DNA of 64,000 bases, taken from Enterobacter phage ZX14. The notes under the pieces are model-generated. The model was not told where the DNA came from. It saw nothing but the letters and a program-made list of their open reading frames with translations, and searched no databases. The stretch lies in the sequence record PP236086.1, one strand, 5' to 3'. Made by a program: the position numbers and the translations under genes. Below, in pieces: positions 7,355 to 63,432 of this stretch (its first letter is position 1; every line of letters starts with the position of its first letter).

Positions 7355-7401
7355 TTTGTTGGTGTAGGAACATAGTATCATGAACCTACACCGTTGTAAA
7401 C
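7355..7401 (-). promoter_or_regulatory. early promoter embedded in inverted repeat (PeSL-like)
   Basis: On the minus strand, GTTTAC (rc of 7396-7401) is followed by a 17-nt spacer and a TAnnAT -10 box. The IR ggtgtagg (7361-7368) / cctacacc (7385-7392) flanks the -10. Confidence 0.55.
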
Positions 7402-7413
7402 ACTTATTTTCGA

Positions 7414-7863
7414 TTAACGAACTTTCAGAATTCCAGCTACGCAGCTACGTGGCACGACAGTGAAATCACCTGCATGAACAACGTTAAGCAGTTCTACGCC
7501 GTCTTCAATCCACTGGTCAGAAACCCAGCCACAAGTACGGGAGCGGAATGGAGTTTCAAAACAAACTGCTTTAGTAAGCAGATCGGTTGGGTCTTTGATA
7601 ATCAGTGGCTTAATCTGAGTCAGATACATATGAGCCACATCTTCATCGACAACATAACCACCTATTTTAGACGGATATTTGCTTGTAGGGGCATCAGAGC
7701 CAATGACTTCAGTCACGTGTTCAGGTTTAACATAACCGACAACGCCAAAGTCTGTACGAACTTTATAACCATCACGAGTAGAAGTACCGACTACAGTACC
7801 GGTTTCGCCAGCAATTTTAGAGCCAGACAGGAAAGATACGTATACACGAGAACCAATTTTCAT
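7414..7863 (-). CDS. hypothetical protein, 149 aa
   Basis: ORF with no recognised motif. Confidence 0.5.
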   Translation of the reverse strand: MKIGSRVYVSFLSGSKIAGETGTVVGTSTRDGYKVRTDFGVVGYVKPEHVTEVIGSDAPTSKYPSKIGGYVVDEDVAHMYLTQIKPLIIKDPTDLLTKAVCFETPFRSRTCGWVSDQWIEDGVELLNVVHAGDFTVVPRSCVAGILKVR

Positions 7864-7872
7864 AATAACACC

Positions 7873-8433
7873 TTAAAATAAAATAAAATCAACTTGAACA
7901 GCATCAGCACGTTTGAACATAACCTGGCTGTCACCGAGTAGAACACTATTATCATCCACTTCGTATATAGCAAGATAGTAACCTTTATTACGAAGTGAAT
8001 CAAAATCACAATCATCAAACCACTTGTAGAAATGGCCTTCAGTTTCGAAACCAAAGTAATACTCTTTGTGCCATCTCTTAGGCAGCTCAAATTGGTCCTC
8101 TACATTATAACGACTTACCGCAGAGGCCATCAGCTTTTTATCAGCACCCGGAGGTGGGCGATTGAAAGCACCTTTAGAATTAACGATGTGTCTGAAATTA
8201 CCTTCTTCGATACCGTGTTTGTCCATCCAAAGAATCGTATCTTCAGAATTGTCAGCGCCTGCCCAACCATATGGTGAACGAGGTTCTTTGTTCCATGATG
8301 GTTTATGTTCAAACTGACCTTGGACCGTAGTCCAACCGCCAGATGGGCAACGTTCAAATTTGAGTTGACGAATATCTTCACGACGAGTACAGAATTTTCT
8401 TTCAACACGATAGATAAGCATGATGACCTCCAT
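7873..8433 (-). CDS. hypothetical protein, 186 aa (182 aa if started at second ATG 8421)
   Basis: Leader ATGGAGGTCATCATGCT. The GGAGG within the first codons acts as the SD for the second ATG. It is preceded by a PeSL-like promoter. Confidence 0.5.
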   Translation of the reverse strand: MEVIMLIYRVERKFCTRREDIRQLKFERCPSGGWTTVQGQFEHKPSWNKEPRSPYGWAGADNSEDTILWMDKHGIEEGNFRHIVNSKGAFNRPPPGADKKLMASAVSRYNVEDQFELPKRWHKEYYFGFETEGHFYKWFDDCDFDSLRNKGYYLAIYEVDDNSVLLGDSQVMFKRADAVQVDFILF

Positions 8434-8477
8434 TAGTAAGTGAGGTCATCATATCATGCTCTAAAGTGGTTGTAAAC
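8421..8477 (-). promoter_or_regulatory. early promoter plus SD-sequestering hairpin (PeSL-like)
   Basis: GTTTAC (rc of 8472-8477). The perfect IR tgatgacctc (8421-8430) / gaggtcatca (8442-8451) includes the GGAGG RBS and the start codon. Confidence 0.5.
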
Positions 8478-9163
8478 TACCCACGTGAAACAGGCAGAGA
8501 ACGCGGGTCGACATTATCACCTTCAGGACATTCGTCAAGACCCATGGCATATCGCTGAGCAAACTTAAGCATCAGAATATCTTTAGCACAGTCATGAACT
8601 GAGTCGTGTGCCACAAAGCCATCTAGTGTGCCTTGAACCATTGGAGTAGTCGAAAGACCACGAACCATAGCGTATGCTTCAATTGCAGTTCGGATATCAC
8701 GCTGGTTCCAGAACTTCACAGGTTCTTGGTGGAACGTATCAATATCTTCTTCAGCAACACCATCAACACGATAAAGGTCACGAATCAAGTCAACCAGAAT
8801 TGGGAAGTCGAATGACATACCACGACACCAGGCCTGGGATTTCCATGCGTCAACATCGTTTTCACGACAATAATCCAGGAACTGCTTAATGCCTTCAAGA
8901 GTTGTCACATCATCTTCAGTAGGAGCCAAGTTAGCACGAGCTTCTGCAGATTGTTCTTTCCACCATTTTACAGTGCTCTTACCGAAAAGACGTTGGCCTT
9001 TCTGTTCGGCCAGTTTAAATTTGATACGTTTACCACGATTTACTAAAGTGTCAAAACTTTCTACTTTAGAAGGGTCTGGGTCAAAAGCAATAACAGCCAA
9101 GTCAATGACTGCTGCTTTGCTTACGTTACCAAACGTTTCAAAGTCAATAATTATATCTTTCAT
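8477..9163 (-). CDS. dexA: exonuclease A (DEDDh 3'-5' exonuclease)
   Basis: 228 aa (T4 DexA is 227 aa). MKDIIIDFETFGN...AAVIDLAVIAFDP (Exo I motif), HDSVHDCAKD (Exo III). Synteny with dda. Confidence 0.85.
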   Translation of the reverse strand: MKDIIIDFETFGNVSKAAVIDLAVIAFDPDPSKVESFDTLVNRGKRIKFKLAEQKGQRLFGKSTVKWWKEQSAEARANLAPTEDDVTTLEGIKQFLDYCRENDVDAWKSQAWCRGMSFDFPILVDLIRDLYRVDGVAEEDIDTFHQEPVKFWNQRDIRTAIEAYAMVRGLSTTPMVQGTLDGFVAHDSVHDCAKDILMLKFAQRYAMGLDECPEGDNVDPRSLPVSRG

Positions 9164-9402
9164 AGTTTACCTTCTTGAGCCAGCACTACTAATCGCTCTA
9201 CTAGTTGTGTTGGCAGAATAATATCAGGCTCACAGCCTAAAGCATTTGCTAATTCAAGACCGTTATCGCAAATTCGCATTGCATCATAAAGAGCATCTAA
9301 TTCACACAAGGAATAACGACCCGGGCTAATTTTGTTTTTACGAGACATTTCTCGCTGAGCGGCAATAATTTTGTTTGCTGTATATTCATTAATTCGTAAC
9401 AT
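9160..9402 (-). CDS. hypothetical protein, 80 aa
   Basis: Small ORF between dda and dexA. Confidence 0.4.
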   Translation of the reverse strand: MLRINEYTANKIIAAQREMSRKNKISPGRYSLCELDALYDAMRICDNGLELANALGCEPDIILPTQLVERLVVLAQEGKL

Positions 9403-9410
9403 TCTAACCT

Positions 9411-11056: not shown

Positions 11057-11765
11057 CTTTTTGAATCATTGGAAGGCCACGCTTTAAACGAACGTAGTTG
11101 TGAGCGTTCATGTATTCAAAACGAAGCAAAGCTGTAGCTATAATACCATAGGCCTGGGCAGCATTTTTAGCTGTTTTAACTTTTGCCTTAGGGTCTTCTT
11201 TAGCCTTGTTCATTTCTTTTTCGAATAATACAAGAAGACGAGCAGCTTCTTCAGTTCCTGAAGCGATACGTTTCTTGAGAGTTTCAATTCGAACCATTGT
11301 GGCTTCGTCAATGACACTAGCAGCTTCAAGGTTTTTGAGGGATTCTTTACGTCCTTCAACGTTCTTCAGAACACGAAGACGAATAAAATTAAGCTCTCTT
11401 GCTTTTTTAGGAACCTTAAACGCTTCAGGCCGGTCAAGATTTTTTAATCGAGCATCAGCTATGCCAGAGGCATCCATGAGCTGCTTTAAAGACAGGTCTC
11501 CGCGCCATAAGTTGTATTTCAATTTAACTGGAACCACATTACCTTTAACATAGCCCTTATCGTTATCCCAACGCTCAAGAGTAAGTTTATCATCGCCACC
11601 ACCGAACTTTTCGCCTGAATAAGCACAATGAGTTTGAAGAAGGATATTCTCCATATATGCTCGGTCAAGGTTAAAGTCCTTACCACGAGAGCGAGCAGAT
11701 TCACGAGTGTGAGACAGGCGACGTTTAGCTTTTTTCTGGAATGGTGTTAATGGTTCTGTAGTCAT
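11049..11765 (-). CDS. srd: Srd-like protein (putative anti-sigma factor homolog), 238 aa
   Basis: Same position (after dda.1) and a similar size to T4 Srd. Lys-rich helical C-terminus. No catalytic motif. The assignment rests on synteny only. Confidence 0.45.
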   Translation of the reverse strand: MTTEPLTPFQKKAKRRLSHTRESARSRGKDFNLDRAYMENILLQTHCAYSGEKFGGGDDKLTLERWDNDKGYVKGNVVPVKLKYNLWRGDLSLKQLMDASGIADARLKNLDRPEAFKVPKKARELNFIRLRVLKNVEGRKESLKNLEAASVIDEATMVRIETLKKRIASGTEEAARLLVLFEKEMNKAKEDPKAKVKTAKNAAQAYGIIATALLRFEYMNAHNYVRLKRGLPMIQKGE

Positions 11766-11774
11766 TTTGTTTCT

Positions 11775-11822
11775 CCATGTTGGTGTAGAAGCATACTAAC
11801 AAGTTCCTACACCGTTGTAAAC
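11775..11822 (-). promoter_or_regulatory. early promoter embedded in inverted repeat (PeSL-like)
   Basis: GTTTAC (rc of 11817-11822). IR ggtgtag (11783-11789) / ctacacc (11807-11813) around the -10. Confidence 0.55.
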
Positions 11823-11867: not shown

Positions 11868-12497
11868 CTACCATTCAATCAGTTCCAGGTCGATGATAGT
11901 ATAAACGGTTTCAACACCATAATCTTTCACTGCTTGACTGCTACAAATACGGTACGTTGCTTCCGAAGGAAGCATAAACTCACACTCACCTTGAACCATA
12001 TCTAACTTATCTTCACGTTGTTCTTTTGCTTCCATCTGACCCATGAATTCTTCATCGGGAGCCGCCAACAAAATCTGAATCATTTCTTCTTGATAATTGA
12101 AAGCATATGGGCAGTTTTTAATACGGAAAACAATTTGAGAATTATAGTGCCACTTTGAAGCAAATTGTTTAGCTGTGCTGAAGTCGGAACTAAAGCTTGT
12201 TACACGATTCAGTGTGAATGTTTCACCTTCAGCCAAGTCATAAATTTTGTTTGCTTCAAGCAATGAAATCCCACGGAATAATGGAGGAACCGTAGATGTC
12301 AGATGCTTACGTACAATAGGATTCAATAGTTCATGAATGTAGTCAGTATTCTTATCGTTCATGCACAGCCACAGAATACTTTGCTCCTGATCAGTGAACT
12401 TTTCGTCTACACGTTGTTGAATGTAAAGACGTTCTTTTTCTTCTTCATCTAAAACTAGTTGTTTGATCGTAGAAACTTGAAGCATGATGACCTCCAT
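11868..12497 (-). CDS. mod: ADP-ribosyltransferase, ModA/ModB family
   Basis: 200-209 aa. It has an R-S-E type ART triad: PLFRGIS (Arg), VTSFSSD (STS) and QGECEF (Q/E-x-E). It occupies the T4 modA/modB position after srd. Only a single copy is present here. Confidence 0.6.
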   Translation of the reverse strand: MEVIMLQVSTIKQLVLDEEEKERLYIQQRVDEKFTDQEQSILWLCMNDKNTDYIHELLNPIVRKHLTSTVPPLFRGISLLEANKIYDLAEGETFTLNRVTSFSSDFSTAKQFASKWHYNSQIVFRIKNCPYAFNYQEEMIQILLAAPDEEFMGQMEAKEQREDKLDMVQGECEFMLPSEATYRICSSQAVKDYGVETVYTIIDLELIEW

Positions 12498-12541
12498 TGT
12501 AAGTGAAGATCATCATAACATGAGAGGAAGGGCTTGTAAAC
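12481..12541 (-). promoter_or_regulatory. early promoter plus leader hairpin, near-identical cassette to 8421-8477
   Basis: GTTTAC (rc of 12536-12541). IR atgatgacc/gatcatcat around the same ATGGAGGTCATCATGCT leader. Confidence 0.45.
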
Positions 12542-14378: not shown

Positions 14379-14406
14379 AAAAAAAAAAGGACTCCCGAAG
14401 GAGTCC
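14379..14406 (-). terminator. intrinsic terminator (UUCG-tetraloop hairpin + U10)
   Basis: ggactcccgaaggagtcc (14389-14406) is followed on the minus strand by a run of 10 T (14379-14388), directly after the stop of the 504-aa gene. Confidence 0.7.
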
Positions 14407-14411
14407 TATAA

Positions 14412-15926
14412 TTAGACAATTGTATCTTTTAAGAAGGATGCAAACAGAGAACCACGACGAGCATAACCAGCATCGTTAGGATGCACAAGGTCATGCGAAG
14501 TGTATTCTTCAGCATTTTCTTTAGTAATCCAGCCTTGGACGTCAACAAACTTCAGTGAATGTTTTTCAGCCTGTTCCATTACAGCCGTACGAATCTTATT
14601 AATTGCTTCTGTTTCACCTTGCGGCGTAGCAGGACCAATTAAAATGACCGGGACTGTAGGGAAATTGGTTTTAACAATTTCAAGAGCAGCGTCCATATTA
14701 GTCTTAAGTTCTTCTACTCTACCTGCTACAGAATCATTATAGCCTAAGCTAAAGATAATATAATCAGGAACTCTAGACAATGTCAGCAATTTATTGGTAA
14801 CACGAGTTGCTGGGACCCTTTCACCGGTAGAGGTCCAGCCAGAACCACCAATACCATCTGCTAATCCGTCTACGCCTAAATGGTCACACATAATACGGAA
14901 ATCGTTAAAGCTTGGCTGAGTTGCTTCGGTACCGAAGGTATATGAATCACCCATCTGCCATACGAATTTACGAGTACGTGGAGGCTTGGACAACGTATCA
15001 GAAGATGAACCTAAGTTCAAGCCGCCGAATGCACTGTTAACGCCTGCTAATGAATATGAGCGTGATTTACGTTCACCGCCCCAATCAACTAAATAGACAA
15101 ATGAAGAACCAGATGAATCAGTAGTTATGCTCTGTGTACCGACTCTTAACCCATCAACATAAAGCTCACAAATAGTATTAAGACCTGCTAATTTAATTTC
15201 AAATTTAGGAGAGTCAGTAACCCAGTTAGCTCTAAATTGTGTGCCATTTCCGATACCATTCCCACGATAACCAGAAGTAGAATCTTTTACATCAGAACCC
15301 CAATAATCGAAAGCAGTATCAGTACGTTCTTTAGAAACACCTGCATACATAGATGTTGCGTTAGTACCACGATAAGTAAGGTTGAATGTTGCACCTGTCC
15401 CTGTCGTTATATTAGCACCATTGTTTCCATTACCCGCTTCAGTAGCACAAGGGTTCGTAGGAGGAGTTGTGTATACACCACCTTGACGGACAGAAGCGGT
15501 TGTTATAGCACCTTCAGCACCTACTGCAGTAACACGAATTAATGTTGGCGCTGATTTAACTCCACCAGAAACATGAATAATATCACCAAACTTATAACCT
15601 GTACCACCATCAACAATTACTGCCGTATCTAAAGCACCACTACCTTTATAAAGATTCGTTGCAGGAGCAGGAGAAATAGGAGCAAATGGAGGGATAATTT
15701 CAGGAAGTTCTGGGATAATTGGTGGTATTACTTCGCCAAACATTACTTCGATATTATATTTTTGCCATTCTACATCCTGTCCTTTTTCAAAGACTGTAGA
15801 ATATAGTGGTTCTTCACTTAAAGAAAGGTTATAAAAAGAGCCTGCTATTTTATGAGCATTTGAATACACCGTAAAATAAACTGATACTTCTATACCCGAT
15901 CTTAACTTCAAATTTATATATTTCAT
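14412..15926 (-). CDS. Soc-domain fusion protein with C-terminal SGNH/GDSL hydrolase (putative capsid-displayed esterase)
   Basis: Residues ~1-66 align with the adjacent Soc (YINLKL / YVNIKTF; GIEVSVYFTVYSNAHKIAGSFYNLSLSEEPLYSTVFE vs GVEVSVAFKVYSDAHRIAGAHYQIFPSEEPAYADVVE). A Pro-rich linker follows, then a G/T/N-rich domain. The SGNH blocks are GDSY (FVWQMGDSYTFG), GYND (FSLGYNDSV) and DLVHP (SHDLVHPNDAGY). The gene has its own promoter and terminator. Confidence 0.7.
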   Translation of the reverse strand: MKYINLKLRSGIEVSVYFTVYSNAHKIAGSFYNLSLSEEPLYSTVFEKGQDVEWQKYNIEVMFGEVIPPIIPELPEIIPPFAPISPAPATNLYKGSGALDTAVIVDGGTGYKFGDIIHVSGGVKSAPTLIRVTAVGAEGAITTASVRQGGVYTTPPTNPCATEAGNGNNGANITTGTGATFNLTYRGTNATSMYAGVSKERTDTAFDYWGSDVKDSTSGYRGNGIGNGTQFRANWVTDSPKFEIKLAGLNTICELYVDGLRVGTQSITTDSSGSSFVYLVDWGGERKSRSYSLAGVNSAFGGLNLGSSSDTLSKPPRTRKFVWQMGDSYTFGTEATQPSFNDFRIMCDHLGVDGLADGIGGSGWTSTGERVPATRVTNKLLTLSRVPDYIIFSLGYNDSVAGRVEELKTNMDAALEIVKTNFPTVPVILIGPATPQGETEAINKIRTAVMEQAEKHSLKFVDVQGWITKENAEEYTSHDLVHPNDAGYARRGSLFASFLKDTIV

Positions 15927-15975
15927 ATTGGTTCCCTTTGTTTACAAGTTATATTTATTTAATGCTGTGTGTAAA

Positions 15976-16001
15976 CAAAAAAAGGACTCCCGAAGGAGTC
16001 C
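15976..16001 (-). terminator. intrinsic terminator, identical hairpin to 14389-14406
   Basis: ggactcccgaaggagtcc (15984-16001) plus a T-run on the minus strand (15976-15983), after the soc stop. It is followed by GTTTAC..TATAAC early-promoter-like sequence driving the Soc-fusion gene. Confidence 0.65.
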
Positions 16002-16006
16002 TTTAA

Positions 16007-16830: not shown

Positions 16831-16875
16831 TTTATTTCCTTTCAATTCAAGTAGAGATTAATTATAACATTATGT

Positions 16876-19650: not shown

Positions 19651-19790
19651 TCTTCTTCTCCAAAGTCATAGTGGTTTTCGTAAAAACAATCTTGACAATA
19701 ATCACCGTCATCACCAAAACAAGTTTCATTTCGATGAACTTCATTTTCTGGTATCTTAACACCACAATCATCACATGTAAACTGTCTCAT
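19647..19790 (-). CDS. Cys-rich micro-protein, 47 aa (not in ORF track)
   Basis: MRQFTCDDCGVKIP...CFGDDGDYCQDCF: a two-CxxC zinc ribbon. ATGA overlap with the sp start. Confidence 0.3.
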   Translation of the reverse strand: MRQFTCDDCGVKIPENEVHRNETCFGDDGDYCQDCFYENHYDFGEEE

Positions 19791-19924: not shown

Positions 19925-20227
19925 TTAGATTTCCTCGCAGAAGGCCCATTCGGCATGATAAACCGTAGCGCCTTTAGTGTCACTTAAGCAAACCACATCT
20001 ACCGGAGAAACTACACGATAGACAACTGGTTCTCCTCCGTATGAACGTGCAGCACGTCCAGCATAAATCTTTGCTAGTCCGATATCTTCGGTGAAGAATA
20101 CACGGTCTAAATTTTTCTTACGTCCTACTTCAGAAATTACTCCAGTATCGACAGGTGGACAAAGCATGTTTTTGATGTTTGCGTTAGTTGTCGAGCCATG
20201 ATAGTAAGTTTTCATTTTGTTCTCCAT
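19925..20227 (-). CDS. hypothetical protein, 100 aa
   Basis: ORF after the PeSL-like promoter at 20221-20270. Confidence 0.45.
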   Translation of the reverse strand: MENKMKTYYHGSTTNANIKNMLCPPVDTGVISEVGRKKNLDRVFFTEDIGLAKIYAGRAARSYGGEPVVYRVVSPVDVVCLSDTKGATVYHAEWAFCEEI

Positions 20228-20270
20228 GTTGGTACAAGACTATAATATCACGCCCTAAGGAGATGTAAAC
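20221..20270 (-). promoter_or_regulatory. early promoter (GTTTAC-17-TATTAT)
   Basis: rc of 20221-20270 gives GTTTACATCTCCTTAGGGCGTGATATTATAG. It has only a short IR (tctcc/ggaga). Confidence 0.5.
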
Positions 20271-28427: not shown

Positions 28428-28953
28428 TACGTTTTACCCTATTACATTCATTTTCAGTTTTAAGAGCTTTGGCCTGAAGCTTTGTGTAGCTCTTTTTCCA
28501 AAGGTCAAAAGCTGTACTGTATTCATAAGATTTACGATAATCGCTTCGTGATGGGCGTTTATCAATAAGTTTATTATATTCTTCTTTGAACGTATCATTG
28601 ACAAAACGCTCACAGTATTCTGCAATACGAGTGTTACGGTCAATTTCATGGTTCTTGGCTACAGCACGAAGATAATCTTCACGTGGTTGTGCGTTACGAC
28701 GTTCTTCATCAAGCTTGGCTGCTAATTCAGCTTGAGCAGCACAGTTCTTACCACATTGATTTGGAGCTCTGGTATACGTAATGCCTGTACCGTTACGCCA
28801 TTGGACTTCACCTGTACGTGCGTCAACTTCAGCCTGGGTCCTAATCTTTCCTACTTCAGACGCATTGTAGATAGGCCCTTGAGGCATCTGACAACCGGCC
28901 AGAAGAGTAGCAGCTGCTATTAAAGCAATTTTAAATTTCATTTTAATCCTCAA
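28405..28953 (-). CDS. putative lipoprotein, 182 aa
   Basis: Signal peptide with a lipobox LLAGC. Charged, coiled-coil-rich mature part. It lies between gene 43 and the 42 region, where T4 carries imm. Confidence 0.5.
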   Translation of the reverse strand: MRIKMKFKIALIAAATLLAGCQMPQGPIYNASEVGKIRTQAEVDARTGEVQWRNGTGITYTRAPNQCGKNCAAQAELAAKLDEERRNAQPREDYLRAVAKNHEIDRNTRIAEYCERFVNDTFKEEYNKLIDKRPSRSDYRKSYEYSTAFDLWKKSYTKLQAKALKTENECNRVKRNEPHQSN

Positions 28954-28996
28954 AAAGTGTTAGGCCATTTTATCACAGCCTAACACATTTGTAAAC

Positions 28997-41356: not shown

Positions 41357-41733
41357 TAGCTTGCTTCCTTAACAATTTTGAGGTCACGGAAGCCTTTCTT
41401 ACGCTGAGACTTCATACGCTTTATAGTCTTTTCAGAAATCTTGCCTGCATCAGGGTTATAAGTGCCTACACCGAAAGCAGGGGTGCTGAATTCAGACAGA
41501 ATATAAGCTACAACCAGTTCACGAATACGTGCCTTACCGATCTTCTGGTCGTTTTCTTTCATGGTACCGTGCAGATCATTTTCCCACTGATCGAGGATTT
41601 CAGGCGTAACGTATCCACCAGATTTCATGATGCTAACAACTTTGTCATAAGCGAAAGAGTTCAGAACGTTTTTGATAGCTTGAGACATAGCAAATTCCTC
41701 AGTAGTTAATATTTTGTTATCCAAGGAGGACAT
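41356..41733 (-). CDS. hypothetical protein, 125 aa
   Basis: ORF after the promoter at 41721-41761. Confidence 0.4.
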   Translation of the reverse strand: MSSLDNKILTTEEFAMSQAIKNVLNSFAYDKVVSIMKSGGYVTPEILDQWENDLHGTMKENDQKIGKARIRELVVAYILSEFSTPAFGVGTYNPDAGKISEKTIKRMKSQRKKGFRDLKIVKEAS

Positions 41734-41761
41734 TATACCCTGTCCTCATGGGTTTGTAAAT
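41721..41761 (-). promoter_or_regulatory. early promoter with IR centred on -10 (TATAAT in loop)
   Basis: IR gaggaca/tgtcctc (41727-41748) encloses GGTATAAT on the minus strand. -35 ATTTAC. Confidence 0.4.
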
Positions 41762-42060: not shown

Positions 42061-42317
42061 TTCAGCTCCAGTAAAATAGCACGAACGACTTGTTCAACTT
42101 CAGCGTTTAATGTATCTGAAGCTAAAGCAAAAATGCAGTTAGCAATACGCTGTGGGTTCAGTTTGGCTTGTTCTACGTAACATTCGGTGCGGCAGCTTAG
42201 TGCACGGAAGATAATTTCTTTGTTACCAATTTCAACAACAAGATTGTAATGACCGTGACGGTTTGCTACACGGAATTCCATACGGACTGATTTAGTTTTA
42301 GAAGTAAGAGTAGCCAT
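42057..42317 (-). CDS. hypothetical protein, 87 aa
   Basis: ATG at 42317 just downstream of the PeSL-like promoter at 42325-42376. Confidence 0.4.
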   Translation of the reverse strand: MATLTSKTKSVRMEFRVANRHGHYNLVVEIGNKEIIFRALSCRTECYVEQAKLNPQRIANCIFALASDTLNAEVEQVVRAILLELN

Positions 42318-42324
42318 TTTGTAT

Positions 42325-42376
42325 CTCCATTTGTTGGTGTAGGAACATACTAACACGAACAAATGGAGTTGTAAAC
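42325..42376 (-). promoter_or_regulatory. early promoter embedded in inverted repeat (PeSL-like)
   Basis: GTTTAC (rc of 42371-42376). IR ccatttgtt (42327-42335) / aacaaatgg (42358-42366). Confidence 0.55.
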
Positions 42377-43821: not shown

Positions 43822-44268
43822 TTAGAAAGCCCTGTCAGAAAACTCAAGTTGTTTTTCAAGCTGCTGGATATAATCGGCTGCGGCCTGCATAAGATTGGCT
43901 TCATAACCGTTTACACGGGATTTAGCTTCTTCAAGGCGTACAGTAATTTCCATACCATCGAATTGATTCATAGGAGCTTCTGGGAAAAAGTCAGAAGCAA
44001 GCTCTTCAATTTCTTTCAACTGGTCCATTGTATCTTCACAATAGAAACACCAGAACCAAGAATCACGCCCGTTCACATGAAGATAAGGACCATTCTTGAT
44101 TTTGACTGAAGTAATACCGTCTTCATAGTCACGGTCACGTTCAGCAACAGTAACAACCTTGAACACAACACCTTTCTTCAGTTCCGGAAATTGCATCTGC
44201 AGTTCTTCATCATCAGAAATGATTTCAAAAACTTTATTCACAAGGTTCATAACCAAACTCCATATCAA
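43822..44268 (-). CDS. hypothetical protein, 148 aa (T4 pin position)
   Basis: It lies immediately after gene 49, where T4 encodes Pin. No motif. Confidence 0.35.
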   Translation of the reverse strand: MIWSLVMNLVNKVFEIISDDEELQMQFPELKKGVVFKVVTVAERDRDYEDGITSVKIKNGPYLHVNGRDSWFWCFYCEDTMDQLKEIEELASDFFPEAPMNQFDGMEITVRLEEAKSRVNGYEANLMQAAADYIQQLEKQLEFSDRAF

Positions 44269-44434
44269 TTAACTCATTTAAGGAAGGTTCATCATAACAC
44301 TCTTCCTTCTCTGTGTAAACAGGTTCTTCAGGCTCGACGGTTTCCCATCGAGCTGCATACCATGGCTTACTGGTCACGCCAATAGCTTGAGACTTCGAAA
44401 TCGGGAGCATCATCATATTCCCAGAACCATTCAC
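44234..44434 (-). CDS. hypothetical protein, 66 aa
   Basis: Small ORF. Confidence 0.3.
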   Translation of the reverse strand: MNGSGNMMMLPISKSQAIGVTSKPWYAARWETVEPEEPVYTEKEECYDEPSLNELIDMEFGYEPCE

Positions 44435-46646: not shown

Positions 46647-47659
46647 TTACGCAATTCCTGCATTGCATGAAGTAGTTTAGCACGTTGTACACGAATCTTA
46701 TCTGCTTTACCAGTGAGCTCATCAATCTGACGGTCGTAATCGTCTACAATCAGAGTCATTTCATTCACAGACTTTTCCATTTCTTTATAGAAATGTTCTT
46801 CGACTGGGACCGATTCAGGCTTGTAGATTTTAAGGAAATTCGCTTTAGAAGTATCTACAGACAGTTCGCCTTTAATAACTTCTTTTGGCTCATCAAAATC
46901 AGGAGCTTTAACTTGCGGTGCACGAACAGTTATTGCGAATACAACTGTCGAGCCTAAACGTCGGAACGTATAATGGAACAATTCCGGGTTAGTCGCATTC
47001 ATAAAAGCACGAAGTTGTGCAAACGTCTTTTCTTCAGGGGCATGATTGACAATTGTGACAGTGAATTTATTATCACAGCCCGAGATCATTTTAGCATCAA
47101 GATAAGGCAGTGGTTCGCGGCCGGTTTTAAATTCGAGCTCTCGACTACTTCCTACACACAAGCGAGAACCGAGAGCCAGAATCATACGCCAGTTGTAGTT
47201 AAACTCTGAACAGAAGCTTTGAGTATAAGCTTTCATTGTCGGAGAACACGCCGAAGTGAAATGACCACGAGCGTTCTTACGAGTGAACTTCATACCTTCT
47301 TTACGCTCGCCAAACTGAGAGATACGTTTCAGTGCTCGTTCGACAGCAAAATATTTACTATCACGGAGAGCTTTATAGAAGTCGTATACGCACAGATAAT
47401 TAAATGTTGGCGACAGAGGAGGTAGACGATTCATGATTTCTTGAATACCAATATGTTTAATCGCATTGATATCAAGAGACAGCGCCATCTGACGAATAAA
47501 AGGTCCAATATCATCAGGATGGTTCTTTATCACAGTAGATGAATCGGTGAAATCATTTTTATAATGATTGGACGGATGACGGAAATGGTTTGCCGCTACA
47601 CGGCACGCTTCGCGTACTACAATTCTGTTATTCATTTTCAATTCTTTTGCTACTGACAT
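46643..47659 (-). CDS. hypothetical protein, 338 aa
   Basis: Large ORF with a coiled-coil C-terminus. No motif. Confidence 0.45.
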   Translation of the reverse strand: MSVAKELKMNNRIVVREACRVAANHFRHPSNHYKNDFTDSSTVIKNHPDDIGPFIRQMALSLDINAIKHIGIQEIMNRLPPLSPTFNYLCVYDFYKALRDSKYFAVERALKRISQFGERKEGMKFTRKNARGHFTSACSPTMKAYTQSFCSEFNYNWRMILALGSRLCVGSSRELEFKTGREPLPYLDAKMISGCDNKFTVTIVNHAPEEKTFAQLRAFMNATNPELFHYTFRRLGSTVVFAITVRAPQVKAPDFDEPKEVIKGELSVDTSKANFLKIYKPESVPVEEHFYKEMEKSVNEMTLIVDDYDRQIDELTGKADKIRVQRAKLLHAMQELRK

Positions 47660-48379: not shown

Positions 48380-49149
48380 TAAATCACCACTGATGAAGGA
48401 CGTTTAAAGAAAGAATGAGTAATGTCATTCACTGCTTGCGTAAACGTAGCTTTAAATTCAATATCACCACGGTAGTCATTTGGTACACATTTAGGAAGTG
48501 AACCATAAACCGTAGCACCATTTTCTAGTCGAACAGTCATCTTAGCGACCGGGCCATAAATATCCATCCACTCTTTGACTGAAACAACCTTACCTTTTAC
48601 TGTCTGTTTGCCCACAGGAGCTTCGCCTTTGGACTTATTCAGCTCAGCATAATAATTACTATACCAAGCTTCAGAATACGCCTGAATCGCTTCCAGGATG
48701 GTTTTATGTGCACGTACTTTACACATACCAGCCTTATGACCGCCTTCCAAATCCCATACTTTGTACGGAGTCTGGATTTCTACTTTATCTAAAGCTTTGA
48801 TTTCTTTGTACATGTCATAAGTCAAACGCAGTTTCCACCAACCGTGGTCACCGGTATACTCAGGTTTGTCAAAGTTATCAAGCTCGGTGACATATGGAAG
48901 GTAACTACCAGCGTGATACGCTTCCACTTCACCTAATTCATTTTCCCACAAGTAACCATCAAATGGTGCATGTGGACGGTCATCAACACCCCAGGTAGGA
49001 GCTACGACTTTATCGAATGATTCACGTCCGTAGAGGGACTTGCTCCAACCTGAGTTCAACTCCTCGGCGCGTTTTTCAACTTTCGCTCGGTGCTCACGGT
49101 GGGCTTTACGATTTTCTTCAAAAAGGTCATTGATGATTTTAGTTAACAT
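48379..49149 (-). CDS. hypothetical protein, 256 aa
   Basis: ORF after the PeSL-like promoter at 49160-49206. Confidence 0.45.
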   Translation of the reverse strand: MLTKIINDLFEENRKAHREHRAKVEKRAEELNSGWSKSLYGRESFDKVVAPTWGVDDRPHAPFDGYLWENELGEVEAYHAGSYLPYVTELDNFDKPEYTGDHGWWKLRLTYDMYKEIKALDKVEIQTPYKVWDLEGGHKAGMCKVRAHKTILEAIQAYSEAWYSNYYAELNKSKGEAPVGKQTVKGKVVSVKEWMDIYGPVAKMTVRLENGATVYGSLPKCVPNDYRGDIEFKATFTQAVNDITHSFFKRPSSVVI

Positions 49150-49159
49150 TTTATATCTC

Positions 49160-49206
49160 CATGTTGGTGTAGGAACATACTAACACGCTCCTACACCGTT
49201 GTAAAC
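49160..49206 (-). promoter_or_regulatory. early promoter embedded in inverted repeat (PeSL-like)
   Basis: GTTTAC (rc of 49201-49206). Perfect IR ggtgtagga (49166-49174) / tcctacacc (49189-49197) around the TAGTAT -10. Confidence 0.6.
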
Positions 49207-50809: not shown

Positions 50810-50989
50810 TTTATTTTCCTCAAATCAGATGAACAGTATTATCACGTTTGTAGATGTCAATAAGCATTTGGCTAGGTTCTTCATAAGTGAAGTGGTTATA
50901 TGCTTTGACCGCCGTTACAGCAACTAATGCCATTACTACAACTTTCATAGTTTCAGAGAATACTGCTTTTAAAAATTTCATTTCGTTCT

Positions 50990-51035
50990 CCATGTTGGTA
51001 GGAAGACTATACCATGTCCTCCTACCATTGTAAAC
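50990..51035 (-). promoter_or_regulatory. early promoter embedded in inverted repeat (PeSL-like)
   Basis: GTTTAC (rc of 51030-51035). IR ggtaggaag / cctcctacc around the -10. Confidence 0.5.
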
Positions 51036-51037
51036 AC

Positions 51038-52018
51038 TTACTTCAGAAGAGTAACTTCAGCAATCTCTTCCCAACCATTTGGGTCGGTGGCGACGAAGTC
51101 AGCCAGATAAAGCGCTGTACGTAAGGATACGTTACGGAGCTTAGTTACATTAGCCTTCATCCAGTTGAGCGCCATGGACGTCTGAGCGTCGCTTAAACCA
51201 CGTTTCTGCATCATGTTGGTGTTCAGAATTACATCTTCAACACGAACCATGATTTCTTCGTTTGAGTGAACACCCAGGTCCAGATAAACTGAACGTGATA
51301 CAAGAGCATGAAGATGTGGAGCAAGTTTAGAACCACGTTCTAATTCTTTATCGATATCAACGTTAGTGATGAACACGATAGTGCCTTCGAACTCGAATTC
51401 TTTATCGATGTTTTTGTCATCGAGATAAGCAGAAGCAGTGCTCCAGCAAACTTTACGAGTTTCACCTGTATCAAGTGCTGCTTTCAGGAGGTTAAGCATA
51501 TCCATATCAGAGAATACGTCAACATCATCAATAAGCAGAACGCTATTTGCATCACGGTTGTTCCAAAGTTGCTCATAAAGACCGATACCAGAGATTTTAC
51601 CGTTGATGCTTTTATAAACAATTTCACCATATTCATGAGCAGTTTTCAGAGCTTTATCCAGGCTATAAGTCTTACCAATACCTGCAGCACCAGAGATGAT
51701 TAATGAACGAATGTTGCCAGTGATAATGCCTTTGGTCATCATGTTCATTACTGTAAAGCGTTTGTTGATACGCTGTTTCATTTCCTCAACTGACTCAACA
51801 GTAGCCAGTGGAGAAACCTCCATACCTTCCATTTCGATGTCGGATTTGAACACCCATACACCACGTTCTTTACCATCAACTTGGATGAAGACTTTACCAT
51901 CGCCAAGATGTGCTTCATGAGCAGGTACTGCATCTGGGAACCAAGTCTTGGTAGCAACAAACTTACCAGAGATATCGTTACCGCGGAAAGTACCTTTGTT
52001 GATTTGAACGTTGAACAT
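51038..52018 (-). CDS. AAA+ ATPase, 326 aa (T4 nrdC.10-like position)
   Basis: Walker A ISGAAGIGKTY and Walker B VLLIDDVD with an N-terminal ~100-aa extra domain. Confidence 0.55.
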   Translation of the reverse strand: MFNVQINKGTFRGNDISGKFVATKTWFPDAVPAHEAHLGDGKVFIQVDGKERGVWVFKSDIEMEGMEVSPLATVESVEEMKQRINKRFTVMNMMTKGIITGNIRSLIISGAAGIGKTYSLDKALKTAHEYGEIVYKSINGKISGIGLYEQLWNNRDANSVLLIDDVDVFSDMDMLNLLKAALDTGETRKVCWSTASAYLDDKNIDKEFEFEGTIVFITNVDIDKELERGSKLAPHLHALVSRSVYLDLGVHSNEEIMVRVEDVILNTNMMQKRGLSDAQTSMALNWMKANVTKLRNVSLRTALYLADFVATDPNGWEEIAEVTLLK

Positions 52019-52039
52019 TTTATTACTCCGTGAATTTCA

Positions 52040-52128
52040 GTATTTGTTTCGATGCAGCTATAATAACATGTTCGCTGTAGATGTAAACACTTTTGTGAAA
52101 AAGATGCCCGAAAGGGCCCGAAGGCCCT
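52040..52128 (-). promoter_or_regulatory. terminator-promoter module (UUCG hairpin + GTTTAC-17-TATTATAG)
   Basis: Hairpin gggcccgaaggccc (52113-52128) with an alternative gcccgaaagggc, followed on the minus strand by a T-run, then GTTTAC (rc of 52084-52089) and a -10. Confidence 0.5.
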
Positions 52129-54637: not shown

Positions 54638-54912
54638 TTCAATTTACCTTTAGCTTTTGCATCATGGATTGCAGCAAGAATACCTGCATAGTTCTCTTGG
54701 TCACTTTTACGTACGATAGTCATACTATAAGGCATGCTATCACTATCTTTAATAAAACGTTCCAACTGACAAGTCAGAAGAATTTCAGGGTGGAACAGAG
54801 TATACATCAGATTGCCTGTAGCGCCACGGTATTGGCAAATTTCTACTGACTTGCCACCTTCCCACTGATTAGTTAGGACTAAATCGCCTACTTCAAGCTT
54901 TGGAAAACCCAT
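54634..54912 (-). CDS. hypothetical protein, 92 aa
   Basis: ORF after the promoter at 54925-54971. Confidence 0.4.
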   Translation of the reverse strand: MGFPKLEVGDLVLTNQWEGGKSVEICQYRGATGNLMYTLFHPEILLTCQLERFIKDSDSMPYSMTIVRKSDQENYAGILAAIHDAKAKGKLK

Positions 54913-54924
54913 TTCAATTTCCTC

Positions 54925-54971
54925 ATGTTGTCTGTAGGAGTATCATAACACGTCCTACAGACGTTGTAAAC
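54925..54971 (-). promoter_or_regulatory. early promoter embedded in inverted repeat (PeSL-like)
   Basis: GTTTAC (rc of 54966-54971). Perfect 10-bp IR gtctgtagga / tcctacagac. Confidence 0.55.
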
Positions 54972-55437: not shown

Positions 55438-55670
55438 CAGAGCTCCGGGAAACTGTTCAAAAGATGTTTAAAGCGACGAAGTTCTTCAAGTTTCATTTCG
55501 CCGCCACCGAAAGAAGACATACCACTGAACTTAAAGGAAGCACCGATAGCACGTCCATTAAAAATGTCCATGGTAATTAAGGTATTGTCATGACCATTGT
55601 TGTACTCGATAGAACGAGTTACGCCGATATGCCCACCACCATGATTTACAATACGTTCAATAATTTCCAT
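55437..55670 (-). CDS. hypothetical protein, 77 aa
   Basis: Small Gly-rich ORF. Confidence 0.35.
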   Translation of the reverse strand: MEIIERIVNHGGGHIGVTRSIEYNNGHDNTLITMDIFNGRAIGASFKFSGMSSFGGGEMKLEELRRFKHLLNSFPEL

Positions 55671-55689
55671 CAGAACTTCTCCAGTTCGT

Positions 55690-55769
55690 TAGTGTAAGAA
55701 CATCTTAACATGTTCGAAAGAGTTTGTAAACACCTTCTTTAAATACCCGAAAGGGACCCGAAGGTCCCT
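55690..55769 (-). promoter_or_regulatory. terminator-promoter module, near-duplicate of 52040-52128
   Basis: Hairpin agggacccgaaggtccct (55752-55769) plus GTTTAC (rc of 55726-55731) with IR gaacat/atgttc over the -10. Confidence 0.45.
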
Positions 55770-59835: not shown

Positions 59836-60294
59836 TTAGATTAAATCAATAACTTTTGTGCTAGTTTTTCCTTCAAGACGACGATTGTTGATGAAAGCCA
59901 TACGACAGCACAGAGATGGCATTTTGCCTGGCTGAGGACGGTCTACGGTCATACCTAACCACAGATTGCGGTCAGTGATTTCAAGACGAAGAGGGCGATA
60001 ATTGATACCAGGTTCTTTGTCTTCTTCAACATCAGGTAATGCCGGCATGTTAAGAAATTCTACAACTTCTTTAACATGATTATGAAGACGTTTGAATAGT
60101 GCAAAGACGTACTGCTCGTCAATTTCACGTTGAATAGCACGGTCCAAGAGGTGAGGGCTGTACTTAACGAAGAAGCGTTTTACGCCGGCTTCAGTACAGG
60201 ACGAGGCAATAGATTTGTTGATTTCGGCGAACTCAGTTTCGAAGATACGACGAAGTTTGTTGCGGCGAATGTAAACGCTTGAATCAATAGACAT
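59836..60294 (-). CDS. regB: RegB endoribonuclease
   Basis: 152 aa. VYIRRNKLRR.FE.EF..IN..I......AGV..F..KYS.HLLDRAIQREIDE.YVF matches T4 RegB. Confidence 0.85.
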   Translation of the reverse strand: MSIDSSVYIRRNKLRRIFETEFAEINKSIASSCTEAGVKRFFVKYSPHLLDRAIQREIDEQYVFALFKRLHNHVKEVVEFLNMPALPDVEEDKEPGINYRPLRLEITDRNLWLGMTVDRPQPGKMPSLCCRMAFINNRRLEGKTSTKVIDLI

Positions 60295-60297
60295 TTT

Positions 60298-60351
60298 GAT
60301 CTCCTTTTAGTGTGTAAGATGATAATAACACAACTAAAAGGAGATGTAAAC
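60298..60351 (-). promoter_or_regulatory. early promoter embedded in 11-bp perfect inverted repeat (PeSL-like)
   Basis: GTTTAC (rc of 60346-60351). IR ctccttttagt (60301-60311) / actaaaaggag (60333-60343). Drives regB. Confidence 0.55.
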
Positions 60352-60354: not shown

Positions 60355-60564
60355 TTACTCTTGGAATGGAGTGAGCTTACCTGCGATTGAACAAATTTCA
60401 ACCAATGCAGGATAGAACTCTTTGACTTGTTCTAAACGTTGCTGAGCGTAAGCCATTTGACCTTCTTCGATACACGCTTCTTGGTCTTTCAGCAGATACT
60501 GATGATATGCTGTACAAGCATCTGAAATGGCGCTCTGGAAATCACGTAAACTTTCAATTTGCAT
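60355..60564 (-). CDS. hypothetical protein, 69 aa
   Basis: Small ORF. Confidence 0.3.
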   Translation of the reverse strand: MQIESLRDFQSAISDACTAYHQYLLKDQEACIEEGQMAYAQQRLEQVKEFYPALVEICSIAGKLTPFQE

Positions 60565-61373: not shown

Positions 61374-61897
61374 TGTATTCCTATCACAAAGAAAAGAGGC
61401 AGAGGTTTATTACCCTGACACATATAACGATTTACTAAATCTTGATATGCATTGTAGAACTTAGACATATCAGGAACTTTCATCGGCTCATCAATTATAA
61501 TCAAAAGGCGTGTAATTGATAATCCACGATATTTAGTAAAACCATCGTCAGACAAGAAACTTCGGATTGTATCACCAATAACAAAACCTTTATGGTCTCT
61601 ATCGATACAATGATTTGAATTGCACTTACGCTTGATTAAATCAACAAGTTCTCTGCTTTGAGATGAATTTGTACTTAATACAATTACATCATTACCGGCG
61701 TCACGCCATCGAGAAGCAAAATCGGCAGCTGCCGTTGATTTGCCTGTTTGACGACCGCCGTCAATACGAAGAGTTCCGAACTCTTGCATTTTGCCGACTG
61801 GGTCAACATAGTCCCAATCAGGACTATCTAAACGTTCTAATGCACGGTCTGTGAAAGCGTACATCATGGTTAGATAAACGGGTGTTAAATGTTTCAT
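61370..61897 (-). CDS. P-loop NTPase, ~176 aa (start MKHLTPVYL at 61897)
   Basis: Walker A IDGGRQTGKST and Walker B-like LLIIIDEP. The track's longer N-terminal extension is probably untranslated. Confidence 0.5.
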   Translation of the reverse strand: MKHLTPVYLTMMYAFTDRALERLDSPDWDYVDPVGKMQEFGTLRIDGGRQTGKSTAAADFASRWRDAGNDVIVLSTNSSQSRELVDLIKRKCNSNHCIDRDHKGFVIGDTIRSFLSDDGFTKYRGLSITRLLIIIDEPMKVPDMSKFYNAYQDLVNRYMCQGNKPLPLFFVIGIQ

Positions 61898-62068
61898 TTT
61901 ATTTCTCGGATTAGTGGGGCCATTCCTTGGCACATAATTCATCCGTGTTACACTATGTAAACCCCTTACCGCACTTGGGCTCGACCTTATTACAGGTAGG
62001 AAAAGGCCCATCACTCAGAGGACACGATGTTCATGAGGAGAGGGTGTGTCTGCCTTTATTAGGAAGGC

Positions 62069-62635
62069 TTAACGCGCCTTATTTGCTACTGCAAATGCGT
62101 ATTCTACGTTAGGGTCTTTGAACACACCTTTAGTAGTGTCCATATCAACCTTAAATCCACCGCGAGCCATTACACCACTGAATTCTTTACGGAAGTCGAA
62201 AGTGTCAAGACCAGCCCATTGGGATTTATGTTTAGCAAATTCCTGTCCAGCAAAGTTTGCTGCTTTAGCCAGTTTATTATCAATGACCCACTTGCCATTT
62301 TTAGGAACAAATGCAGGCCCTTTCTGTTTGGAGAAAAGCTTCAGATGTTCGCGACGGAGAGCCGTATCTGCTTTAACGAATGCTGGGTCTAGGTTACCAG
62401 CGACGATATCTTCGATGTCATTGAACTTAAGACCATCAACAGTGATATTCAAGTCATTACGCCAGCGAAGTCCTTCCCAAGCAAAAGCTTTGAAGTCTGA
62501 ACCTTTAGTAGCCAGATAACGTTCAATAGGAGCGGTTTTGGAATCGAAGCCATTTCCACCATAAGTCCATTCATCTTTATTGATGCCTTTAACACCAATA
62601 GTAGCTTCAGCAATAAACTCTTGATAAGTTTTCAT
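62069..62635 (-). CDS. internal (injected) protein with capsid targeting sequence, IPIII-like, 188 aa
   Basis: The N-terminus MKTYQEFIAEA is identical to the T4 IP/Alt capsid-targeting signal cleaved by the gp21 prohead protease. The size is similar to T4 IPIII. The body is not similar to T4. Confidence 0.6.
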   Translation of the reverse strand: MKTYQEFIAEATIGVKGINKDEWTYGGNGFDSKTAPIERYLATKGSDFKAFAWEGLRWRNDLNITVDGLKFNDIEDIVAGNLDPAFVKADTALRREHLKLFSKQKGPAFVPKNGKWVIDNKLAKAANFAGQEFAKHKSQWAGLDTFDFRKEFSGVMARGGFKVDMDTTKGVFKDPNVEYAFAVANKAR

Positions 62636-62643
62636 TTCAATCC

Positions 62644-62937
62644 TTATGCAAACGGGTCGTGAAGCTTATTACCAACTTTACGGAAGACTTTAGCAGCAAA
62701 TTTGTTGGTTGGGTTATCAACCATAATTTTACGCATTTGGCTTGTAGCTGCAGTACGAGCGGCTTTATAACCAGCGATATTATCTTTGATGGTTACACGT
62801 TTGCCACCAGGGCCGTCAACAGTTACTTTATAGACGCCTTCATCTTCACCTGGTTTGATTTCTTCAATCCAGATATAGCCACCCTGGACACGTTGAGCCT
62901 GGGCTGTTTCAGTGAGAAACTCTTGATAAGTTTTCAT
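62644..62937 (-). CDS. internal (injected) protein with capsid targeting sequence, 97 aa
   Basis: N-terminus MKTYQEFLTETA (CTS). Basic small protein. Confidence 0.55.
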   Translation of the reverse strand: MKTYQEFLTETAQAQRVQGGYIWIEEIKPGEDEGVYKVTVDGPGGKRVTIKDNIAGYKAARTAATSQMRKIMVDNPTNKFAAKVFRKVGNKLHDPFA

Positions 62938-62954
62938 TTTTAATCCTTAATTTA

Positions 62955-63371
62955 TTAGTTGTAGATAGCCTTACCATAATGTTTATACCACTGAGGCCTT
63001 TGAGCAATTTTTTCATCCAGACGCGCTTGAGAAATTTTAAGAGCGTCTGGAGTTGGAACATAATCATTGCGGAATTCGACCGGAATGTCGCTAATATCCT
63101 GAACAGTAATGTCCTGGATTTTAAAACCACGTTTTAAGCATTCCGCGATTAAGTCGATTTGACGTTTACGCAAGAACTCGAGCTTGTCATAAAAGAATGT
63201 TACATGACCTGTACCTAAAATGAAAACTGAAGAGATTTTAAAATCCTTGAGCTTTTTACCATTTTGAACGTGCTTACGAACAGCACCGAATACACGAGGT
63301 AATTCACGGTACTCTGCCATCAGGTGTTGGTCAGCCAGTTCAGATACTAAAGTTAAGTTAATGCGTGTCAT
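62955..63371 (-). CDS. denV: endonuclease V (pyrimidine-dimer DNA glycosylase)
   Basis: 138 aa, ~80 percent identical to T4 EndoV ([35 protein letters not shown]...). Confidence 0.95.
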
Positions 63372-63378
63372 TTTTAAT

Positions 63379-63432
63379 CTCCGTTTGTTTGGTATGAGAG
63401 TATCATAACACGGCCAAACGGAGTTGTAAACT
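63379..63432 (-). promoter_or_regulatory. early promoter embedded in inverted repeat (PeSL-like), drives denV
   Basis: GTTTAC (rc of 63427-63432). IR ctccgtttg (63379-63387) / caaacggag (63415-63423). Confidence 0.55.

Follow-up and report, generated by a model that had tools for sequence, protein, structure and literature searches.

Promoter early stem-loops (PeSLs) are composite cassettes in which an upstream stop codon is followed by a sigma70-type early promoter, a stem-loop, a Shine-Dalgarno (SD) sequence and an ATG (Arbiol et al. 2010, PMC2839356). The stem-loop most commonly lies in the interval that separates the -35 from the -10, or over the -10 (PMC2839356). Here we describe a family of early promoters embedded in inverted repeats in a 64,000-nucleotide stretch of Enterobacter phage ZX14 (PP236086.1), hereafter the window. 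A first-pass annotation of this DNA had labelled them PeSL-like early-promoter cassettes, and the label is right, as their layout fits the 2010 definition (PMC2839356). PeSL cassettes are already known from T4-type phages and this phage adds a new set.

Delayed-early RNA of T4 is made by extending early transcripts into downstream genes (PMC2988021). At T4 gene e, I-TevI, soc and 49 a promoter sits inside an inhibitory hairpin and gives rise to a short transcript that can be translated (Uzan and Miller 2010, PMC3014915). Moreover, RegB cuts GGAG in early SD sequences and is easily inhibited by secondary structure (PMC3014915). From structure, covariation and precedent we conclude that the promoters of the window are probably PeSL-type cassettes whose hairpin is specific to read-through RNA, and that in two of the three classes described below (B and C) this hairpin would gate translation. 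By read-through RNA we mean a transcript arriving from the upstream gene and by own-start RNA a transcript begun at the cassette promoter, with start sites inferred by position (7 nt past the -10 assumed throughout). Cassettes are named by the coordinate of their -35-side end, e.g. 63431 for denV, 60351 for regB and 12541 for a modB-like gene.

Early promoters of the window

Sequence comparison shows the window to belong to a T4-type phage resembling Kanagawavirus. Over 8 kb it shares 93% identity with Enterobacter phage vB_EhoM-IME523 (IME523; Straboviridae, Tevenvirinae, Kanagawavirus), with weaker matches to hundreds of T4-like phages. Gene order is T4-like (rIIA to topoisomerase, dda, srd, gp41, gp43, gp55, regB and denV) and all genes lie on the minus strand, as do all cassettes below.

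The first-pass annotation had proposed a motif search, which confirmed the enrichment: GTTTAC-N16-18-TANNAT has 15 exact matches in the window, all on the minus (gene) strand, compared with 0.59 expected and a maximum of 4 in dinucleotide shuffles. A position-weight scan of the window found no additional strong promoter sites beyond the exact matches, and showed that a TGn extended -10 is conserved among the window promoters. The described sequence is present at every one of the 14 sites listed earlier, and three sites had been overlooked (28967-28996, 44291-44320 and 19753-19782). The spacer, given as 17 nt after GTTTAC, is actually 18 nt; the figure of 17 nt holds if the -35 hexamer is taken as TTTACA.

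There are approximately 16 copies of the cassette in the 64 kb, each running in the order upstream open reading frame (ORF) stop codon, GTTTAC(A), 17-nt spacer, TGn-TAnnAT, short leader, GGAG and ATG. The stop codon lies 0-3 nt before the -35 in 10/16 cassettes and often overlaps the G of GTTTAC, whilst GGAG or GAGG and the ATG follow 25-41 nt past the -10. The 5′ arm of the inverted repeat is always within the spacer or the -10, upstream of the expected start. The 3′ arm takes one of three placements: at the start site (class A), on the SD (class B) or on the SD and AUG (class C). Arms measure 7-14 bp and loops 4-27 nt.

The stems are far stronger than chance would give. The pooled set comprised 73 distinct promoters, taken from the window, from IME523, from Kosakonia phage 305, from Edwardsiella phage PEi20 and from seven IMG/VR loci. 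A stem with 8 or more Watson-Crick pairs encloses the -10 in 54 of them, compared with a mean of 5.8 and a maximum of 12 of 73 when spacer and downstream region were shuffled separately. The possibility, raised at the outset, that the arms are no better than those of shuffled promoters is thus not borne out. RNA folds of 11 window cassettes range from -12.5 to -21.8 kcal/mol (z -2.3 to -6.6), and 10 of these cassettes fold better than every one of 200 shuffles. An Rfam scan of the whole window gave no family match at the gathering threshold.

Early promoters predicted to pair with ribosome-binding sites

Class B comprises the cassettes of denV (63431) and regB (60351), 42376 and, weakly, 20270. 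The 5′ arm follows directly after the -35 and is an anti-SD sequence (CTCC...), and the 3′ arm contains GGAG. Class C comprises 12541, in front of a gene for a modB-like ADP-ribosylase, and 8477, in front of a motB.2 homologue; here the 5′ arm is the -10 itself (TATGATGA...) and the 3′ arm spans SD and AUG. Five of these cassettes are predicted to close the SD in read-through RNA (63431, 60351, 42376, 12541 and 8477, i.e. those of denV, regB, the modB-like and motB.2-like genes and one ORFan). The predicted probability that the SD is unpaired is 0.18-0.82 in own-start RNA versus 0.00-0.04 in read-through RNA.

The denV cassette (63369-63431) has its -35 at 63426-63431, its -10 at 63402-63407, an inferred start at ~63395 and its ATG at 63369-63371. 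The 5′ arm CTCCGTTTG (63415-63423) pairs with the 3′ arm CAAACGGAG (63379-63387), inside which the SD lies; the SD is unpaired with probability 0.61 in own-start versus 0.00 in read-through RNA (dG, the folding free energy, -17.7; z -4.7). At regB (60292-60351; ATG 60292-60294) the 5′ arm ATCTCCTTTTAGT (60333-60345) adjoins the -35 and the SD again falls within the 3′ arm ACTAAAAGGAGAT (60299-60311), with values of 0.82 versus 0.00 (dG -20.3, z -6.6). The third class B cassette precedes an 86-aa ORF (42315-42376) and pairs CTCCATTTGTT (42358-42368) with the SD-containing AACAAATGGAG (42325-42335). Its loop retains a class A 3′ arm, CCTACACC, without a partner, and the cassette looks chimeric, its sequence suggesting a class B anti-SD 5′ arm joined to a leftover class A 3′ arm. 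At the same site IME523 carries another 5′ half, with pairing across the -35 (AAAGGGTGT..ACACCCTTT).

In the modB-like cassette (12483-12541) the 5′ arm TATGATGATCTTCA (12504-12517) is made of the -10 plus 8 nt, and the 3′ arm TGGAGGTCATCATG (12483-12496) lies over SD and AUG. The SD is unpaired with probability 0.18 in own-start versus 0.00 in read-through RNA, and the pair ATGATGACC/GGTCATCAT is changed to ATGATGGCC/GGCCATCAT in IME523, a compensatory change. The motB.2-homologue cassette (8419-8477), whose upstream gene is dexA, pairs TATGATGACCTC (8442-8453) with GAGGTCATCATG (8419-8430), the latter again over SD and AUG (0.37 versus 0.04 in read-through RNA). We considered dexA (8477) and motB (7401, class A) as the driven genes and rejected both, since the annotation of relatives puts them upstream; the driven genes are the motB.2-like gene and cef.

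Conservation in T4 and its relatives

The B/C design is also present in T4, at regB (TTTTCCTCTTGACTG / CAGTTAAGAGGAGAA), denV (TCTCCTGTAG / CTACAGGAGA), modB (ATGATAGCTTC / GGAGGCTATCAT) and motB.2. T4 carries class A-type stems at ipIII and also upstream of dmd.

For regB and denV the structure is conserved with covariation in relatives. We collected 36 distinct denV upstream regions from IMG/VR, 31 of them with a recognisable promoter, and 31 distinct regB leaders. MAFFT alignment and RNAalifold on 21 regB leaders gave no consensus structure, the arms being out of register in the alignment, and alignment-free duplex tests were used in place of a consensus. In T4-like contigs of ~165-178 kb, the pre-start segment of the denV leader forms a duplex of about -8 to -19 kcal/mol with the translation initiation region, compared with about -6 for shuffles; 16/31 denV leaders pair better than shuffles at p<=0.01. 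For regB the figures are 20/31 at p<=0.01 and 25/31 at p<=0.05. Moreover, cognate arms fit each other better than arms exchanged between divergent lineages (-13.6 versus -8.9 kcal/mol for regB, -14.5 versus -8.1 kcal/mol for denV), across 18 distinct 5′ arms at regB and 19 at denV.

This pairing between pre-start segment and initiation region is absent from the denV leaders of jumbo phages. In three of these contigs (L041, L042 and L049; IMG/VR, 345-378 kb) a different element was observed ~60 nt upstream of denV, consisting of a TTGAC -35 inside a GGGG..CCCC hairpin, with TTTTT after the hairpin and TATAAT after that. It is a terminator interleaved with a promoter, resembling the PeSLs of RB49, and is without anti-SD pairing.

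Cassettes with the 3′ arm at the start site

Class A comprises 7401, 11822, 49206, 51035, 54971, 28996 and 41761. Often the 3′ arm reads CCTACACC and a common leader, AACATGGAG, comes after it; the arm pair GGTGTAGG/CCTACACC recurs. The 3′ arm ends 5 nt before GGAG. The predicted probability that the SD is unpaired in read-through RNA is 0.58-0.83, more open than with the upstream part shuffled.

In the cef cassette (7337-7401), downstream of motB, GGTGTAGG (7385-7392) pairs with CCTACACC (7361-7368). In that of srd (11763-11822), GGTGTAGGA (11805-11813) pairs with TTCTACACC (11782-11790), with one G·U. The cassette of a 256-aa ORF (49147-49206) has a stem of 14 bp with three G·U pairs, formed by GGTGTAGGAGCGTG (49184-49197) and TATGTTCCTACACC (49166-49179), with the core of the -10 as the loop (dG -21.8, z -5.9); as a 68-nt sequence, this cassette is found at 315 places in 63 phage records. 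A 53-aa ORFan follows a cassette (50979-51035) whose arms TGGTAGGAGGAC (51016-51027) and GTCTTCCTACCA (50996-51007) form 12 bp with one G·U, and in relatives GGTAGG/CCTACC is replaced by GATAGG/CCTATC, a compensatory change. The cassette of a 92-aa ORF (54910-54971) pairs GTCTGTAGGA (54953-54962) with TCCTACAGAC (54930-54939). Here the 3′ arm spans the inferred start (~54935) and the SD remains open, and its orthologues show changes of U-A to U·G and of A-U to G·U.

The remaining promoter of this class other than 28996, which is discussed below, is of the ATTTAC type (41686-41761), with a 7-bp repeat, GAGGACA/TGTCCTC, around TATAAT. The ATG annotated in relatives for the ORF that follows overlaps the -10, and a second ATG in the same frame, with an SD ahead of it, is located 45 nt further downstream (41686-41688) and gives 110 aa. 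The start may have been misannotated, or the origin of the transcript may decide between two isoforms.

We abandoned a reading of class A as a conserved structure specific to individual genes, as the srd hairpin is without a counterpart in T4-type phages. On sequence comparison class A looks like a lineage-specific repeated cassette, and classes B and C look gene-specific and old. Searching IMG/VR for the exact pattern of this cassette type returned 5 loci, too few for covariation.

RNA structure or DNA site

It had been argued that the palindrome must be a DNA-level feature, with one arm preceding the transcription start. This argument is unsupported. Since the upstream ORF so often ends 0-3 nt before the -35, without a terminator, read-through RNA carries both arms. 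A strict scan found approximately 7 intrinsic-terminator-like sites on the gene strand, though it misses hairpins with short T-runs upstream of 52088, 55731 and 20270.

The inverted repeat is most likely an RNA structure rather than a DNA site. Arm sequences vary by site and by phage and complementarity is kept. When each orthologue group is represented by a single sequence, stems hold 13 G·U and 4 A·C pairs (p=0.049), and the sense strand folds more stably than the antisense by 2.1 kcal/mol (p=0.0006). Across all 73 sequences the count is 32 G·U versus 8 A·C, with 1733 versus 2010 in shuffles, although the 32 and 8 are not independent, because orthologues share pairs. Gapless substitution counts within orthologue groups were also made and their totals left unused, as they are confounded by loop indels and non-orthologous cassettes.

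Action on DNA, as an operator for a dimeric early regulator, a cruciform or the target of a site-specific recombinase, is highly improbable. One arm does lie upstream of the inferred start, and the PeSL authors speculated on a DNA-binding protein at GGGG..CCCC stems (PMC2839356). However, an operator test found no half-site or fixed spacing shared across sites, and the variety of arm sequences, arm lengths and loop lengths excludes a single operator sequence; there are at least 8 different arm sequences in the window and ~18 each in the regB and denV leaders. In the sense strand G·U is better tolerated than A·C, and cruciform extrusion is disfavoured by long loops. Lastly, in five cassettes the 3′ arm coincides with the SD or AUG, which are signals at the RNA level.

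A probable hairpin specific to read-through RNA

A transcript begun at the cassette promoter would lack the 5′ arm, because this arm is encoded by the spacer or the -10, upstream of where transcription is inferred to begin. A read-through transcript would hold both arms and could form a hairpin of -12 to -22 kcal/mol. In classes B and C the ribosome-binding site would then be closed in read-through RNA and its GGAG probably masked from RegB. The genes concerned would be translated solely from their own early-promoter transcripts, limiting synthesis to the immediate-early period. In class A the hairpin would fold the promoter-derived RNA onto itself and leave the SD open, and might perhaps serve as an attenuator, a protector of the 3′ end or an insulator. 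The promoter-derived RNA would thus always be folded away, either onto the 5′ end of the leader, with the site open, or onto the site itself, which is then closed. Translational coupling through a ribosome terminating on the upstream ORF was considered. With the 5′ arm beginning 7-9 nt past the stop codon, such a ribosome would be expected to disrupt no more than a few outer pairs.

Masking from RegB is a likely second effect of the hairpin, given that this enzyme cleaves the GGAG of early SDs and that structure inhibits it. It is quite unlikely that processing or stability is the whole role, with the hairpin hiding GGAG from RegB in classes B and C, or guarding the upstream cistron from 3′ exonucleases in class A, and with no primary effect on translation. 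Such a role would suit a phage that encodes RegB, an enzyme acting on the GGAG of early SDs in a structure-sensitive manner, and leaders in which GGAG is followed by an A-rich stretch. It would also suit the position of the class A 3′ arm, which ends 5 nt before GGAG and would thereby sit 5-6 nt upstream of the RegB cut. Processing and translational gating are inseparable by sequence alone; however, the arms of class C reach over the AUG, which masking from RegB does not need.

The original PeSL proposal was that the stem-loops are terminators or attenuators against polymerase arriving from upstream, limiting read-through across tandem early units. We consider this an unlikely account of the window cassettes. 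The hairpins are stable, and at 28996 (28939-28996) one does resemble a terminator. The stop codon of the DNA polymerase gene (gene 43) abuts the -35 of this cassette, and the motif (28967-28996) overlaps a hairpin (28957-28986) in which GTGTTAGGCTGT and ATGGCCTAACAC form 12 bp around the -10, with two G·U pairs, followed by TTTTT. This appears to be a combined terminator-like hairpin and promoter, the sole cassette in the window where both clearly coincide. A T-run follows this hairpin only, out of approximately 16, whereas the others are followed by AACATGGAG or A-rich leaders, and a GC-rich hairpin with an immediate U-run is absent at all promoter-spanning hairpins of the window except 28957-28986. 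Furthermore, the three cassettes that do have a separate canonical GC hairpin and T-run are those with weak or no promoter-spanning stems. Termination also leaves unexplained why the 3′ arm in classes B and C is always the SD or AUG, and why the pairing extends with covariation in dozens of phages.

Several observations weigh against a hairpin that gates translation from read-through RNA. One RB49/phi1 PeSL stem-loop placed before lacZ cut expression about as much as rrnB T1, which is terminator-like behaviour and not translational (PMC2839356). Start sites were assumed, so that the 5′ arm is upstream of the start by position only. Stems of classes B and C contain equally few G·U and A·C pairs (3:3 and 4:2), with no significant difference between the sense and antisense folds; the strand asymmetry rests mainly on class A, because the near-perfect B/C stems hold too few pairs of either kind. 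Class A hairpins leave the SD unhidden and the class A hairpin is absent from the srd promoters of the T4-type phages examined; the function of this class may be no more than the inheritance of one repeated cassette. A cruder test, which scored SD bases paired to any pre-start base, gave 23/29 versus 15.8 expected, a count that does not discriminate, since any C/U-rich segment can pair with GGAG.

Gating of translation by a hairpin specific to read-through RNA can also be framed more widely. Across the T4 subfamily, T4 included, the early promoters of regB, denV, modB, motB.2 and some ORFans may encode an anti-SD or anti-AUG arm, such that read-through RNA is silent and shielded from RegB and only the own immediate-early transcript is translated. 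This we put forward tentatively, as the less certain part of our proposal. The published role of the stem-loops (terminator and possible recombination target) leaves unexplained that, in dozens of phages, the ribosome-binding site of regB and of denV forms the 3′ arm; at modB and motB.2 the same holds in the few phages examined, T4 included, and the arms covary. If true, our proposal would explain how packed early genes with individual promoters escape expression from every upstream promoter, and what restricts nucleases and ADP-ribosyltransferases to the opening minutes of infection. It would amount to an undescribed early-phase mirror of the late switch of gene e and I-TevI, and to a general rule for insulating tandem early units. 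For the annotation and engineering of therapeutic T4-like phages, it would mean that inserting or deleting genes at cassettes alters both transcription and translation of the next gene.

Promoters with weak or no stem

That the -10 is enclosed by an inverted repeat holds at most of the sites first described and fails at three (52040-52128, 55690-55769 and 20221-20270), where the promoter's own repeat is absent or of 5-6 bp. These promoters (52088, 55731 and 20270) have a separate GC-rich hairpin with a UUCG loop and a T-run upstream. In front of a 326-aa ORF (52016-52128; -35 52083-52088, -10 52060-52065) the hairpin is GGGCC-UUCG-GGCCC and there is no significant repeat. In front of a 77-aa ORF (55668-55769; -35 55726-55731, -10 55702-55707) hairpin and T-run lie at ~55735-55769 and the promoter's own repeat is GAACAT/ATGTTC (6 bp). 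At 20270 (20213-20270) there is only a 5-bp anti-SD/SD match, TCTCC/GGAGA, and at the corresponding position PEi20 has TCCTC/GAGGA.

The promoter of pin, which encodes a Lon inhibitor (44248-44320; motif 44291-44320), lies inside the upstream ORF and has a weak 7-bp repeat, AAGGAAG/CTTCCTT. Its position within upstream coding sequence is kept from the window to T4 (NC_000866 ~47382-47452) and the stem is not kept in T4. A further motif match inside an ORF (19753-19782) has no repeat and is a doubtful promoter.

Gain and loss of small ORFs at cassettes

We compared the window collinearly with IME523 and Kosakonia phage 305 and found 31 block junctions. Four of these fall inside cassette leaders versus ~0.5 expected (42318-42330 and 50982-50994 against IME523, 54910-54924 and 55676-55681 against Kosakonia phage 305), and each stands beside 1-2 extra small ORFs in the relative. 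This is in keeping with the shuffling model for PeSLs. Most of the 31 junctions are outside cassettes, one of them between two copies of the same terminator.

The crossovers published for PeSLs likewise map to the stretch from the -10 to the ATG (PMC2839356). Since they are repeated in the genome, the ~60-bp cassettes act as patches of homology, and the genome comparisons show that these patches are sites of gain and loss of small ORFs. The clustering of junctions in cassettes might be taken to favour a palindrome that acts on DNA as a recombinase target. However, the junctions map to the leader, past the 3′ arm and ahead of the ATG, where ordinary homologous recombination of repeats would be expected to place them.

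Differences outside cassettes were also observed. A ~1.5-kb segment (14412-15978), homologous to an IME523 gene annotated 'virion structural protein, Lipase_GDSL_2', is absent from Kosakonia phage 305, and both of its borders (minus strand, 14387-14408 and 15980-16005) carry the same terminator hairpin, AGGACTCCTTCGGGAGTCCT, with a T-run. This sequence arrangement suggests gain or loss through recombination between repeated terminators. In addition, Kosakonia phage 305 has two homing-endonuclease ORFs (NC_070776 17083-17733 and 25565-26224) that are missing in the window at 16843/16876 and 24862/24869; these junctions lie near the gene 56 homologue and near thymidylate synthase, respectively.

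Comparison with known systems

Literature searches found no description of early-promoter anti-SD hairpins, though absence there is no proof of novelty. The early promoters of T4 regB, denV, modB, motB.2 and ipIII (consensus GTTTAC..TGnTAnnAT) have the same hairpins as the window. Stem-loops upstream of T4 ipIII, ipII, denV and orf61.9 were reportedly noted by Valerie et al. in 1986 (Nucleic Acids Res 14:8637), and Repoila et al. are said to have done so for the IP loci in 1994. To our knowledge no function has been assigned to the early stem-loops of T4.

The window cassettes share their composite layout with the PeSLs of RB49/phi1 (PMC2839356) and of T4/PST and KVP40/nt-1 (Comeau et al. 2014, PMC4122927). 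Like PeSLs, they are present in many copies per genome among small ORFs, and indels or replacements relative to close relatives start inside the cassette. Unlike the GGGG..CCCC stem of PeSLs, the window has the form GGTGTAGG/CCTACACC together with gene-specific anti-SD arms, and its -35 is the T4-type GTTTAC as opposed to TTGACA. The terminator role published for PeSLs fits poorly here, at 28996 only, because most window stems are without a T-run. Moreover, the PeSL papers are silent on any pairing that involves the SD or AUG, and the terms 'translat' and 'ribosome' are absent from the 2010 text (PMC2839356).

The second comparison is with T4 gene e, I-TevI, soc and 49 (PMC3014915). There, RNA derived from upstream has its SD and/or AUG paired, as is predicted at five window cassettes though not in class A. 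The promoter of the T4 genes lies within or past the 5′ arm, so that the own transcript is without that arm and can be translated; with the start assumed here, the same would hold for the window cassettes. In both systems the structure is kept among relatives with varying sequence. The T4 genes differ in using a late promoter (TATAAATA), which delays translation, whereas the early sigma70-type promoters of the window would confine translation to the earliest transcripts. The window cassettes would therefore work like the e/I-TevI family and yet are not members of it, since their internal promoters are early and not late.

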